Source: Escherichia coli (GTDB lineage Bacteria; Pseudomonadota; Gammaproteobacteria; Enterobacterales; Enterobacteriaceae). Taken from it: DNA of 64,000 bases. The position numbers are program-made. The first letter of the stretch is position 1. Each line of letters starts with the position of its first letter. Shown piece by piece: positions 30,001 through 36,000 of the stretch. The stretch lies in NCBI RefSeq assembly GCF_016026235.1, contig NZ_CP065613.1; one strand, given 5' to 3'.

Positions 30001-33000
30001 CATCACTATCTCGACGCTGAATATTTTCTATGGCCTGCTGTTATGGTTGAGTAAAGGTGTGTGGCTGTACGACTTTCCGCCGTGGTTTGAGCAGGGGGTT
30101 ATGTTGTTCAAGTACACCGATGCTGATGGCTATGACTATGGCCTTGGTCTGCCGCTGATCGCCATGATTACGGTGGTGCTGCTAACAGCGTTTATCATGA
30201 ATTTCACCAGTGTAGGGCGCAAAATTTATGCCCTTGGCGGGAACCGCGAATCAGCCAGTCGCATCGGCTTTAGCGTGCTGAAACTGCAACTTTTCGTCTA
30301 TGGCTATATGGGATTGATGTCTGGCGCTGCGGGTGTAGTGCAGTCGTGGACGGTGATGACTGTCGCCCCCGATTCTCTTCTGGGTTATGAGCTGACAGTA
30401 CTGGCAGCGGTGGTGCTTGGCGGCACTAGTTTGCTCGGCGGGCGCGGCACGTTAACCGGTACTTTGCTCGGCGTGGTGTTGTTGGCAGTGATGCAAAACG
30501 GGCTAAATTTATTGGGAGTCTCGTCTTACTGGCAAACATTGATCACCGGCATCATCATCGTTGCCAGCATTAGTGCCACGGCGTGGAGTCAGCATCAGAA
30601 CCGGAGTCTGCTATGAAAAAATCGTGGCGTAATAACGTTGAGTTTTACTTGATCGGCCTGCTGGTGCTAACTGTTGCCGCGTTCAGCATTACTATGCCGG
30701 AGATTTTCTGGTCGATAAGTAATTTCCAGTCCGTCGCTTCGCAAATGCCCGTGCTGGGCATTCTGGCGTTGGCTATGGCGGTGACCATGCTTTGCGGTGG
30801 CATTAACTTGTCAATTATAGCCACTGCTAACGCCTGTTCACTGGTGATGGCGTGGGTGGCGACTCAGTATCCACTGGGTATTGCTACGGTTGTCGCTACG
30901 TTACTGGCGGGCGCTGGCGCGGCGGTGATAATCGGTTTATGTAACGGCGTATTGATTGCTGGTATTCGAGTGTCGCCAATTCTTGCAACGCTTGGGATGA
31001 TGACGTTGCTCAAAGGGATAAATATTCTGGTGACAGGTGGTAGCGCCATTGCCAATTATCCCTCATGGGTGCTGTGGTTGAATCATGCGCAATGGTTCGG
31101 TATTCCGCTACCGATGTGGTTGTTTGCCGCAGTGGCACTGGGGCTATGGATATTGCTGGAGAAAACGCCGCTCGGTAAAGCCATTTACCTGATTGGGTCT
31201 AACGAACGAGCAACACTTTACTCCGGCATTAACACTCGTCGGGTGCTGATTTGGGTTTATGTCATTTCCGCCTTGCTTTGTGCGGTAGCGGCATTTTTGA
31301 TGATGTCGAAACTCAACTCGGCTAAGGCCTCTTATGGCGAATCGTACTTGCTGGTGTCAATCCTCGCGGCAGTACTCGGCGGGGTTAATCCGGACGGCGG
31401 CAGCGGGCGGATAATTGGTATGGTGCTGGCGCTGTTTCTTCTGCAAATTATTGAAAGCGGCTTCAATATTCTCGGTATAAGCCCCTACCTGACGATGGCC
31501 TTATGGGGAACGTTGCTGCTCTGTTTCATTCAGGTTCGCGGCATGTTGGGGCTGGATCGGGTGGTTTAAATATTGGCTATATTCAATGGACGCGTTTTGC
31601 CGCGATGACATATCAGGCATCGCCAAATACACATAGCTAATCAGGAGTAAACACAATGAAGATCAAAGCTGTTGGTGCATATTCCGCTAAACAACCACTT
31701 GAACCGATGGATATCACACGGCGTGAACCGGGACCGAATGATGTCAAAATCGAAATCGCTTACTGTGGCGTCTGCCATTCCGATCTCCACCAGGTCCGTT
31801 CCGAGTGGGCGGGGACGGTTTACCCCTGCGTACCGGGTCATGAAATTGTGGGGCGTGTGGTAGCCGTTGGTGATCAGGTAGAAAAACATGCGCCGGGCGA
31901 TCTGGTCGGTGTCGGCTGCATTGTCGACAGTTGTAAACATTGCGAAGAGTGTGAAGACGGGCTGGAAAACTACTGTGATCACATGACCGGCACCTATAAC
32001 TCGCCGACGCCGGACGAACCGGGCCATACTCTGGGCGGCTACTCACAACAGATCGTCGTTCATGAGCGATATGTTCTGCGTATTCGTCACCCGCAAGAGC
32101 AGCTGGCGGCGGTGGCTCCTTTGTTGTGTGCAGGGATCACCACGTATTCGCCGCTACGTCACTGGCAGGCCGGGCCGGGTAAAAAAGTGGGCGTGGTCGG
32201 CATCGGCGGTCTGGGACATATGGGGATCAAGCTGGCCCACGCGATGGGGGCGCATGTGGTGGCATTTACCACTTCTGAGGCAAAACGCGAAGCGGCAAAA
32301 GCCCTGGGGGCCGATGAAGTTGTTAACTCACGCAATGCCGATGAGATGGCGGCTCATCTGAAGAGTTTCGATTTCATTTTGAATACAGTAGCTGCGCCAC
32401 ATAATCTCGACGATTTTACCACCTTGCTGAAGCGTGATGGCACCATGACGCTGGTTGGTGCGCCTGCGACACCGCATAAATCGCCGGAAGTTTTCAACCT
32501 GATCATGAAACGCCGTGCGATAGCCGGTTCTATGATTGGCGGCATTCCAGAAACTCAGGAGATGCTCGATTTTTGCGCCGAACATGGCATCGTGGCTGAT
32601 ATAGAGATGATTCGGGCCGATCAAATTAATGAAGCCTATGAGCGAATGCTGCGTGGTGATGTGAAATATCGTTTTGTTATCGATAATCGCACACTAACAG
32701 ACTGAAAAAATTAATAAATACGCTGTGGTTTAACATATTAACTTCGCTCTCCACTTAACTTTTTAGTTAAGGAGAGCGAAATAATATCAAAGTAGCAGTA
32801 AAACCTATAACGTAAATTCAAATTGTTAAATTAACTCCCTCCAGTACACAATACTTCACACGTTAGTTATGAGCGATTTCTGATAGTGCCTGGTTTAATC
32901 AGCGCTTTATTATCTGCGACGTTTATTTTTATTTAAGAGAGATCGCGATGATATCATTAAAAGCTCCGCACAATAATTTGATGCCATATACGCAACAAAG

Positions 33001-36000
33001 CATACTTAATACGGTTAAAAACAATCAGTTACCAGAGGATATCAAAAGCTCCCTGGTTTCCTGTGTCGATATATTCAAGGTTTTGATTAAACAATATTAT
33101 GATTATCCTTATGATTGTCGTGATGATTTAGTCGATGACGACAAACTCATTCATCTCATGGCTGCCGTACGAGACTGTGAGTGGTCAGACGATAACGCAC
33201 TCACCATAAATGTGCAGTTTAATGATTTCCCAGGATTTTATGACTGGATGGATTACCCTGATCACCCGGTTAAGTTTGTTTTTCGCATACTTGAAAATCA
33301 AAAAGGGACAGTTTGGGTATATGACCAGGATGATGCGTTTCTTGATATTAAAGCAAATGTGCAGGCTGGACGCTTTACCGGGCTTAAGAAATTAGTGCAG
33401 TTTATCAATTCAGTGCGAACAGATTGCAAATGTATTCTTCTTGAACGCCATATGCCTTTGCTGAGACTTTTCCCTAAAGGGAAAGAGTGTATCCATGTGG
33501 AAAAATGGCTTCGCGAAATGTCGTCTATGCCGGAGACAGACGCGCCCATTAAGCAGGCGCTTGCGCATGGATTATTATTACACTTAAAAAATATCTACCC
33601 TGTTTTTCCTGAATCACTGGTGATGTTATTGCTCTCTGTTCTGGACGTAAAAACATACAGAGATGATGCGCGATTAAATCAATGGATAACTAATAGAGTG
33701 CAGGAATTAGGTGACAGATATTATCCTGTAAATAAGCACGTTAAAATCCGCTACACTCTTTAGTTCAGAAAGGGTTCCACCTGCAAGTTGTTATTCCACC
33801 AGAGAGTGAATCGCAATGCAGGTAATCATTTCATCTGTATATCTGTATGCCAACTGGCATTCCATCTCTTTTTTCGCCGATATTTTGTTGTGATCGGCGA
33901 CACTTCGCTTAAAAAAACACCAGCAGTGGTTTCGCAGCTATGCGGTGTATAAAAAATGATCTTATGCAGATGTTTTGTGAATGTGTGGGTTGACATTCAT
34001 ATGAAAAAAATCATAATTCCATCATGTTTGTGTGGGGTCTTTTCTGTATCTTACGCATCGCACTCAAGCCTGACAGAAAATATGCTGTAAGGCTCATATC
34101 AAAAACCGCCATTAGCTCATCAGGAAGAGCAGACGACAACCAGGATTGTTGTATGGTACGGGGTTCGAGGCCTCGATGGCGGTCCAACTTTTCAAAACTC
34201 TTCTGAATCAGATCCCCTTATTATCATCCCTGCAAAGTGGAACATTGCCATTGTTTGGCTATTCAGGACGGGTCAGACCAATGAAAAAAGCCCACACAGG
34301 GGAGAGTGGGCTGAAATGGGAAGCTAAAGACTCAAGTAAACTTATCGGAAATAAGGACCACGCATTACGGGGGCTATCATCGCCGATGGTCGGGATTCGG
34401 CAAATCAGGTTGATTACGTAGAGAGTAAATTATCTGCTCACCGCTGCGTCACCCCTTCGTAAATCAGGCGTAGCGCGAATACACCAATAATTGCACCAAT
34501 AACCCGACTGGCAACGCGTTGCATACGCCCATAAGCACGACGCACAGCGGGCAAAGAAAACGCCTGACTAAGAAAGACTCGCCAGATAATTGATGCGAGT
34601 ACAATCCCCGCCCAGGCCATTAAACGTGCCCATGTTGGTGTTTCGGCATTTAATGTTACTGAGAAAATACTAATAAAAAATAAAACGGTTTGCGGGTTAG
34701 AGAGATCGGTAATTAATCCGCGGCGAAAAAAGACATACCAGGGGGCGTTAATCGGTTGTTGTAGTGTGCTCATTTGCGGTGTTGACTGGCGGCGCATGCT
34801 GCACCACGCAAACCATAAGAGATAAGCGCCGCCGACGATTCTGATAAGCGAAAAAATCTCCTCACACTGCGTAATTAGTGTTGCAAGACCAAACAAACCC
34901 AACCCGGAATAAAATGCATCGCCCAGCGCCACGCCCAGCCCGGTCAGCACCCCTGCGCGTCGACCGGAAGCCAGGCTGGTTTGTACTACCACAAAGAGAT
35001 TGGCTCCCGGATTAAAAAAAGTAATCACGAACAGTCCTACGGTCAGGTAAACGGCGTGCAAAGGATCCATAGTGATTTCATCCATAAATAAGTGAACTAA
35101 CTTCATCATATTTCTACCAAAAATAATCGGGTGCGAGAGAGATCACAAAGTGTCTTATTTCCGGTTACTGGCGTTTATGCCCTGACTGAACTAATTATTA
35201 ATCAACCCAATAATGTCGGTGGGTGATAGTGTGATAACAACTCTGGAGCCGTAATATGAAAATAATCTCTAAAATGTTAGTCGGTGCGTTAGCGTTTGCC
35301 GTTACCAATGTCTATGCCGCTGAATTGATGACCAAAGCGGAATTTGAAAAAGTTGAATCGCAGTATGAAAAAATAGGTGATATTTCAACCAGCAATGAAA
35401 TGTCGACTGCAGATGCAAAAGAAGATTTGATCAAAAAAGCGGATGAAAAAGGGGCTGATGTGTTGGTACTGACCTCCGGTCAAACTGACAATAAGATCCA
35501 CGGCACGGCAAATATTTATAAGAAGAAGTAATTCTGAATCCTATGTAAACATCTCCGATGCGTAAGTTTATCGGTGATCATCTATTGAAATTTATGCCGG
35601 ATAAAGCGTTCGCGCTGCATTCGGCAGTTCAGCTTTTCAGCCGCCGCCAGAACGTCGTCCGGCTGATGCCTAAATAATTCGCCGCTGCTGTTTTATCGCC
35701 ATTAAATTTCTCCAGTGCCTGTTGTGGTGTCAGTAAGCGTGGAGCGGGAGTTTTCGCCGACTCGCGCGCCAGTTCCGGCAGTAGCAGCTGCAAAAATTGC
35801 GGCGTTAAATCCGGCGTCGGTTCCACACTTAAAAATAGCGCCAGTCGCTCCATCATATTGCGCAGTTCACGAATATTGCCCGGCCAGTCGTAGTGCACCA
35901 GCACGGTTTCGCTTGCCTGTAATCCCTGGCGTAATGCGGCAGAAAACGGGGCGGAGAGCGCCGCCAGAGACACTTTTAAAAAGCTTTCCGCCAGCGGCAG

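Follow-up and report, generated by a model that had tools for sequence, protein, structure and literature searches.

The AT-rich interval that separates yahK from yahN in Escherichia coli raises a simple question: is it a single piece of horizontally acquired DNA, silenced as a whole by nucleoid-associated proteins, or does its low G+C content (GC) cover parts of different origin? The former was the view of the first-pass annotation, which described positions 32706-34437 of a 64,000-nucleotide stretch of contig NZ_CP065613.1 (assembly GCF_016026235.1) as an orphan segment with yahL and yahM. This whole stretch is hereafter called the window, and all positions refer to it. Our analysis favors the latter view. 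We estimate, with a probability of roughly 0.78, that the interval is composite and comprises two units that differ in history and regulation: a silenced block carrying yahL, and an active locus, xtpA. The second unit holds an 81-nt tRNA-like element (34106-34186) that had been missed in the earlier pass; the 60-aa open reading frame (ORF) running over this element is the annotated gene xtpA. The sequence around the interval (32500-34600) is 100% identical to the chromosome of E. coli strain FDAARGOS_943.

The drop in base composition had been correctly recognized. The GC of the interval is 0.400, that of the whole window 0.518, and a value this low occurs in only 1.7% of segments of 1732 bp; two further GC troughs span about 3.2-6.2 kb and 11.1-13.3 kb. 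We found that the dip is uneven across the interval, with values of 0.33 (0.326) in the spacer between yahK and yahL, 0.39 (0.392) in yahL, 0.40 in the spacer between yahL and the tRNA-like element, 0.57 in the 81-nt element itself and 0.47 in the yahM ORF. The rightmost ~250 bp are therefore near normal GC. The names yahK, yahL, yahM and yahN given to the genes agree with the annotated gene order. Likewise, the lack of recognizable domains was borne out, as neither the 271-aa ORF nor xtpA (60 aa) or yahM (81 aa) matched any family in Pfam, PHROGs, NCBIfam, PADLOC or the PDB sequences.

The left unit is an AT-rich block at approximately 32786-33967 (GC 0.33-0.40; bounds taken from blastn block boundaries) that carries yahL (32948-33763, plus strand). 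On the basis of its ORF, its substitution rates, database searches and RNA-Seq data from an hns-stpA mutant, we describe yahL as an orphan, Escherichia-restricted gene coding for a protein of 271 aa. Its codon usage is atypical rather than normal: GC at third codon positions (GC3) is 0.39, the lowest among the 44 ORFs of at least 150 aa (median 0.59), and its codon adaptation index (CAI) of 0.204 is the second-lowest of the same set (median 0.300). The CAI was computed with Sharp-Li weights, and an index derived from the window ranks yahL the same. Compared with its orthologue in the SCPM-O-B-8794 lineage, yahL shows a synonymous divergence (dS) of 0.626 and a nonsynonymous divergence (dN) of 0.114, that is, a dN/dS ratio (omega) of 0.18, with the 271-aa frame intact and 80% identity. 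For yahK, the corresponding dS is 0.631 and omega 0.022. The dS of yahL is the same as that of yahK, and yahL has therefore been co-inherited vertically with its neighbors since the SCPM split. Judged by this substitution pattern, yahL is under purifying selection and a true protein-coding gene.

Published transcriptomic data indicate that yahL is strongly silenced. In the edgeR table comparing wild-type cells with an hns-stpA mutant (Srinivasan et al., 2015; PMC4288151, supplementary file 3), where a negative log fold change (logFC) means lower expression in the wild type, yahL (b0326) has a logFC of -7.42 (p=1e-92), corresponding to ~170-fold silencing in wild-type cells. The values for the neighboring yahK and yahN are -1.3 and +1.9, respectively. 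In the same table, yahM (b0327) is unchanged in the mutant (logFC +0.53, p=0.13) and xtpA has no row. Moreover, genomic SELEX (systematic evolution of ligands by exponential enrichment) revealed that RNA polymerase holoenzymes bind within yahL in vitro (PMC5493296). Such binding is typical of AT-rich foreign genes, in which it would reflect spurious intragenic promoters. Hence, the description of a foreign-looking and silenced segment stands for yahL, as indicated by its composition, CAI, restriction to Escherichia, patchy distribution and derepression. It does not stand for 33978-34437, which has a near-consensus promoter, a GC-rich conserved element, a published xtpA locus and, in yahM, a gene that does not respond to the loss of H-NS and StpA.

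In several respects, yahL resembles the other K-12 genes silenced by H-NS and StpA (PMC4288151), since it is likewise AT-rich, poorly codon-adapted, patchily distributed and strongly derepressed, with RNA polymerase bound inside the gene body. Unlike that class, it is a single gene with no recognizable mobile-element context and no identifiable donor. It also predates the split from SCPM-O-B-8794 (dS 0.63), yet it shows no drift to the composition of the host.

Strict matches to the consensus of integration host factor (IHF; WATCARNNNNTTR) occur eight times in the 64-kb window, and two of them are near yahL, one just upstream of the gene (32897-32909, plus strand) and one inside its 5' end (33076-33088, minus strand). 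We found no strict match at the xtpA promoter. According to a Reg-Seq preprint, IHF represses a 'yahM promoter', for which the text of the preprint gives no coordinates.

The distribution of yahL across Escherichia is patchy. The AT-rich block is found in E. coli and in the SCPM-O-B-8794 lineage and is missing from E. albertii and from Escherichia sp. E1V33. Within E. coli, the entire 32706-34437 segment is present in 4019 of the 5426 complete genomes. Alignment with strain DE17 delimits an 835-bp presence/absence polymorphism (32942-33776), which comprises the yahL ORF together with 6 bp on its 5' side and 13 bp on its 3' side. The same exact junction without yahL occurs in 1072 of the 5426 genomes, including that of the type strain ATCC 11775, and CFT073 likewise lacks the gene. 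No microhomology or flanking repeat was found at the junctions of this indel. Escherichia sp. MOD1-EC7003 retains only a fragment of yahL. In this strain (L032, 6660-8181), the DNA corresponding to 33791-34228 has been lost together with most of yahL, the tRNA-like element included, and, upstream of what is left of yahL, the DNA shows 72% similarity to 4822-5290 of the window, which lies in another low-GC trough. These species comparisons come from a scan of one genome per species with YahN as a probe. Outside Escherichia, Citrobacter, Salmonella arizonae and diarizonae, and Edwardsiella carry yahN, mostly with yahO and prpR too; in Citrobacter, Salmonella and Edwardsiella, neither yahK, yahL and yahM nor the tRNA-like element was present within 6 kb of yahN.

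No homologue of YahL was found outside Escherichia among 5.8 billion clustered proteins, nor in an exhaustive HMMER search of 1.84 billion representatives. Remote-homology searches with the 271-aa protein returned E. coli YahL, fragments of it, artefacts and a single paralogue family (P0027), a 275-aa protein of rare E. coli that is 23% identical to YahL over its full length. The paralogue lies in a pocket with a GC of 0.30-0.38 at a locus unrelated to the yahL site (GCA_009799345.1, WTUQ01000002.1; L007, 8001-8828). The cluster with the 271-aa form holds 6040 member sequences, and truncated alleles are also frequent in databases, for instance those of 168-210 aa with hundreds of members (P0005-P0008). 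Searches with tblastn gave no match in phages and, among the plasmids of PLSDB, matches only to F-prime-sized K-12 plasmids and chromosome-sized records. Against Pfam, only sub-threshold matches were obtained, to SDH_protease (17.8 bits, cut-off 31.3) and DUF2931 (13.3 bits, cut-off 22.2). The AlphaFold2 model, built on a 7-sequence alignment, has a predicted local distance difference test score (pLDDT) of 47, and the predicted secondary structure is ordered alpha/beta. A Foldseek search of this low-confidence model against the PDB was uninformative (best E 0.27, template modelling score below 0.3).

YahL has been published, along with YdjO and YjfZ, as one of three 'conserved signature proteins' of E. 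coli and Shigella (PMC11057252). The restriction of YahL to Escherichia is borne out here on far larger databases; its universality is not, with ~20% of the complete E. coli genomes lacking yahL. Three candidate relatives were rejected: BLASTP found no kinship between YahL and the DUF2686/YjfZ-type protein encoded beside the paralogue, P0009 proved to be an assembly chimera with response-regulator domains, and P0010 a frameshifted yahL. The paralogue has as neighbors a 1350-aa invasin-like gene, a TPR_3 chaperone and an SseC-type translocon gene, a setting that raises the speculative idea that the YahL family might be tied to type III secretion or adhesion islands.

In the right unit, a promoter scan identified a sigma-70 promoter at 33990-34017 on the plus strand (TTGACA, a 16-nt spacer and CATAAT) that matches 11 of the 12 consensus positions. 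Its -10 hexamer ends 6 nt ahead of the ATG of xtpA, and the expected start therefore falls on the A of this codon, as for a leaderless mRNA. By consensus match, transcription would thus begin at the xtpA ATG. The promoter is 80-100% conserved across Escherichia. Among 49 colinear metagenome haplotypes, it shows 4.3 segregating sites per 100 nt, versus 19.2 in the spacer directly upstream. The gene xtpA itself (b4845; 34024-34206, plus strand; MG1655 annotation 345252-345434) is a 60-aa ORF of a leaderless mRNA, and codons 28-54 are those of the tRNA-like element. RegulonDB v12 credits xtpA to Muto, Goto, Kurita, Ushida, Soma and Himeno (J Biochem 2022;171:459). The locus is the same as ours and the coordinates are identical, with the predicted promoter placed for a leaderless start and the element embedded in the ORF.

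In E. albertii and the SCPM lineage, codon 4 of xtpA has changed from TGG to the stop codon TAG, and the E. albertii-type stop appears in two independent sequences. In addition, XtpA is shortened to 21 aa in 7 of the 117 metagenome contigs (6%). Pairing of the xtpA RNA with GcvB was tried and set aside, as full-length duplex energies were uninformative and pairing with region R1 was weaker than for 96% of background segments. A 16-nt inverted repeat, 88% complementary, joins the 5' end of the xtpA mRNA (34029-34044) with 34283-34298, where the second arm overlaps the 5' arm of the yahN terminator hairpin; this pairing could enclose the tRNA-like element. Judged by eye, the repeat is not conserved in E. 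albertii.

The 81-nt element (34106-34186, plus strand) is called as 'tRNA-Ser(gga)' by ARAGORN, and in the fold of lowest energy it adopts a cloverleaf shape. Its acceptor stem is perfectly paired over 7 bp, D and T arms are present and the CCA end is encoded. Its anticodon arm is abnormal, as the stem comprises 7 bp and the loop 6 nt (CCAGGA), and the loop reported by ARAGORN (CA-GGA-TT) is forced. A canonical 5-bp anticodon stem with a 7-nt loop, U33 and a purine at position 37 is not present. The Rfam tRNA model also gave no match on 131 nt, even at E values up to 10. From these structural features, the element is tRNA-like and not a tRNA.

All 81 nt of the element are identical in E. coli, E1V33, the SCPM lineage and E. 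albertii. In the comparison with E. albertii, identity is 87/87 over 34101-34187, versus 37-84% in the flanking blocks (Fisher p=4e-13): 58% in the upstream spacer, 80% in the promoter, 84% in the 5' part of xtpA and 37% in the first 94 nt downstream. The element is present in 5167 of the 5426 E. coli genomes, and in 4781 of those 5167 the 87-nt query (34101-34187) is at least 99% identical. Among the 49 haplotypes mentioned above, segregating sites per 100 nt amount to 6.2 in the 5' part of xtpA and 13.7 in yahM, and to zero in the element, where only 49 of the 81 nt were free to vary because the retrieval pattern itself comprises 32 nt of the element. The 27 xtpA codons over the element show no synonymous change out to E. 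albertii. An invariant element together with broken peptide frames therefore indicates constraint on nucleotide sequence. On this comparative evidence, what selection preserves would be the nucleotide sequence of the element and not the yahM reading frame. This points to a role for the element at the RNA level, at least outside E. coli proper. In O157:H7 strains (H82, H83 and H128), there is one substitution within the otherwise invariant 34101-34187.

Where does this element come from? In blastn searches against phage genomes, only 34095-34187 matched, to elements of lambdoid and Shiga toxin (Stx) phages. The best match, in phiP27 (17240-17321; 84.9% over 82 nt, E=4e-17), is unannotated and lies between ileZ and argO, just upstream of stx2e. 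Its counterpart on plasmid pHX138, which PGAP labels 'tRNA-OTHER', lies between tRNA-Ile and tRNA-Arg, and the same position in PhiR49_2 is occupied by an intact tRNA-Arg(TCG) that is 77% identical and has the acceptor, D and T arms in common with the element. Identity reaches 85% to an 81-nt degenerate form found in phiP27, pHX138 and mEp460. This form is represented by two alleles in 14 IMG/VR contigs, and the chromosomal variant was found on none of these contigs. Given these alignments, common ancestry of the element and the phage form is clear. The degenerate phage element (L002, 3002-3082; L001, 3009-3089), a 'broken' tRNA, is near-invariant and is not called by ARAGORN.

The cluster to which the phage form belongs sits between the Q/methylase and the stx/lysis genes of lambdoid and Stx phages. 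The phiP27 record gives the names of its outer members, ileZ and argO, and the middle member is called argN in phage 933W. The chromosomal element is like this middle member in its acceptor stem, its D and T arms and its CCA end. It is unlike the phage cluster in that it stands alone between yahL and yahN: its flanks do not resemble ileZ or argO, and prophage genes are absent from its surroundings. It also has a predicted promoter of its own, is embedded in an ORF and has an anticodon arm that is rearranged differently. We considered whether the element is the middle member, and sole survivor, of an ileZ-X-argO cluster that has otherwise decayed and rejected this, as the chromosomal flanks aligned with phiP27 no better than shuffled sequences. 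K-12 also carries tRNA pseudogenes or fragments at prophage or island attachment sites (ptwF, pauD and pawZ), which are partial 3' duplicates of a host tRNA made by integration. Like these, the element is a chromosomal tRNA-derived sequence at a boundary of conserved and variable DNA. Unlike them, it is a full-length phage-type cloverleaf with its own predicted promoter and under strong purifying selection.

Downstream, the status of yahM as a gene is questionable. This 81-aa ORF (34176-34421, plus strand) starts at an ATG that is itself part of the element's 3' acceptor strand, and its frame overlaps that of xtpA by 31 nt (34176-34206). Stop codons interrupt it at codon 18 in E1V33, 12 in SCPM and 32 in E. 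albertii, and the CFT073 annotation has it as frameshifted. The ratio of nonsynonymous to synonymous polymorphism (pN/pS) is 1.43 for yahM versus 0.25 for yahN, and the CAI of yahM is 0.115. On this evidence, yahM evolves neutrally and is probably not a conserved protein gene; more likely, it corresponds to the 3' portion of the transcript of xtpA. Most likely, it is an annotation artefact or a very young ORF. PGAP annotates no yahM in the three O157:H7 genomes mentioned above. Inside the yahM ORF, on the minus strand, lies the intrinsic terminator of yahN (34284-34311), a GCCCAC...GTGGGC hairpin followed by a T-run. It was recognized in the sequence itself and in an alignment of hairpin and U-tail. 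This hairpin is conserved in E. albertii. The pair yahM-yahN has been listed as a convergent excludon (PMC12288877).

Could the whole 1.7-kb interval nevertheless be one horizontally acquired islet, with yahL and yahM all silenced by nucleoid proteins? Low GC over most of its length, ORFs without domains, the strong derepression of yahL in the hns-stpA mutant and the reported repression of a yahM promoter by IHF, itself a nucleoid-associated protein, are consistent with this. We regard it as improbable, because E. albertii and E1V33 have the xtpA/tRNA-like core without yahL, and because the two parts differ in GC (0.39 vs 0.46-0.57) and in their hns-stpA response (-7.4 for yahL vs +0.5 for yahM), the right part having in addition a near-consensus promoter and a published transcript. 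With respect to yahL, the gene might have arisen de novo, or diverged past recognition within Escherichia, from AT-rich spacer to which H-NS binds merely through its AT-richness. That no homologue was found outside Escherichia in any database searched, that no mobility signature is present, that GC3 is still 0.39 after a divergence of dS 0.63 and that the pLDDT is 47, as often in young proteins, all speak for such an origin. Yet a protein of 271 aa is long for a gene of de novo origin, its omega is 0.18, an ordered secondary structure is predicted and a full-length 23% paralogue at an unrelated locus implies an older, diversified family, which makes this origin unlikely. Still less probable, indeed very improbable, is that yahL is a decaying or spurious ORF without function, tolerated only through silencing. 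The precise deletion in ~20% of E. coli, the common truncated alleles, silence in the wild type and a transposon insertion in yahL from a capsule screen that is marked 'No' in the final column of that table would all fit a functionless ORF. They have to be set against an omega of 0.18 over a dS of 0.63, which reflects sustained purifying selection, and against the 6040 member sequences in the cluster with the 271-aa form.

For the right unit, the question is whether the peptides XtpA, and possibly YahM, are the functional products, the invariance of the element being due to coding constraint or recent gene flow. The published title that assigns GcvB regulation to the XtpA peptide speaks for it, as do the length of 57-60 aa retained in ~91% of E. 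coli contigs and the overlap of the two frames. The overlap is only 31 nt, however, and 27 codons show no synonymous change to E. albertii, though the dS of neighboring genes versus SCPM is already 0.63. The codon-4 stop in E. albertii and SCPM and the 21-aa XtpA in 6% of E. coli contigs are also at odds with a peptide product. The absence of the chromosomal variant from phage contigs makes a mobile homogenizing copy unlikely. We consider the peptides unlikely as the selected products. A stronger candidate, to which we still assign somewhat less than an even chance, is that the 81-nt RNA itself is the selected unit, a degenerate argN-type phage tRNA domesticated before the split of E. coli and E. 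albertii, with the XtpA and YahM frames as lineage-specific by-products.

Under the composite reading that we prefer, the left unit (~32786-33967) would be lineage-specific AT-rich DNA with yahL, dispensable and kept silent in laboratory growth through H-NS and StpA. Filaments of H-NS on the AT-rich promoter and gene body of yahL would block RNA polymerase. In the right unit (33978-34437), a strong promoter of constitutive type would fire at the ATG of the leaderless xtpA transcript. This transcript would hold a cloverleaf look-alike that shares its ancestry with the tRNA in the middle (argN) position of the lambdoid/Stx clusters and may continue through the yahM ORF towards the yahN terminator, convergently overlapping yahN. 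If domesticated, the element would function at the RNA level and might serve as tRNA mimic, processing signal or stabilizer, to give examples.

Several points weigh against the composite reading or parts of it. Direct binding of H-NS at yahL is something that we infer, and the derepression could be indirect. It is composition and distribution only that suggest a horizontal origin of yahL, as no integrase, att repeat, donor or other mobile-element signature was found flanking the gene, and the yahL indel may reflect either gain or loss. As for xtpA, the title of Muto et al. (2022) describes a leaderless mRNA with a tRNA-like sequence whose peptide regulates GcvB, and XtpA has 60 or 57 aa in 107 of the 117 metagenome contigs (~91%). 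The fixed 32 nt of the retrieval pattern belong here too. For yahM, a reporter-verified promoter and induction on epithelial cells have been described, which demonstrates transcription, not translation. Lastly, the flanks of the element do not resemble ileZ or argO; the element may have been captured from a phage, or the phage copy could derive from the chromosome.

Most of these observations are already on record, namely the gene names, the orphan status and derepression of yahL and the xtpA paper, and the locus is a textbook case rather than a discovery. In the literature searched, which did not include Muto et al. (2022), we found no earlier report of the kinship of the element with the argN-type tRNA of phages, of its genus-wide RNA identity versus decaying peptide frames, or of the neutral evolution of yahM. 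The literature searched also held no earlier report of the exact 835-bp yahL gap in ~20% of strains. These additions are incremental.

Our results nonetheless have consequences for annotation, in that 32706-34437 should not be taken as one 'orphan island', and yahM probably does not merit the status of a gene; what is conserved beside it is a tRNA-like RNA. They also bear on the proposal of yahL as a universal E. coli/Shigella marker for quantitative PCR, since about one in five complete genomes lacks the gene, including those of the type strain and CFT073. Moreover, yahL represents a clean case of a foreign-looking gene that, over a dS of ~0.6, has kept its AT-richness and has remained silenced by H-NS and subject to purifying selection. 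A perfectly conserved tRNA-like RNA set against a dispensable peptide frame offers a direct test of whether xtpA acts as RNA or as peptide.

The interval lies in the gene order yahJ, ASCH gene, four-gene ATP-binding cassette (ABC) transporter, yahK, yahL, yahM, yahN, yahO and prpR, with yahK at 31656-32705 on the plus strand and yahN at 34438-35109 on the minus strand. Directly 3' of the yahK stop codon, a hairpin (TTCGCTCTCC...GGAGAGCGAA; 32743-32780, plus strand; inverted repeats I9 and I10) is probably the yahK terminator. E. albertii keeps a remnant of this hairpin, as 32733-32785 matches at 80%, and in this species the xtpA region abuts yahJ, without any yahK. In the window, the ASCH-domain gene and the four-gene transporter, of the autoinducer-2 (AI-2) type of sugar transporters, occupy ~26500-31600 and separate yahJ from yahK. 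The two genes directly adjoin each other in K-12, and CFT073 retains only a pseudogene stub. Elsewhere in the window strain, yahG (~21900-23300) carries an internal stop and is annotated as a pseudogene, and an element of the IS5 family adjoins yahD (~17700-18500). Between yahO and prpR, 35595-35668 gives a weak, sub-threshold match to the Rfam family naRNA4 (28.6 bits, gathering score 59.5) and resembles a palindromic element of the repetitive extragenic palindromic (REP) type.

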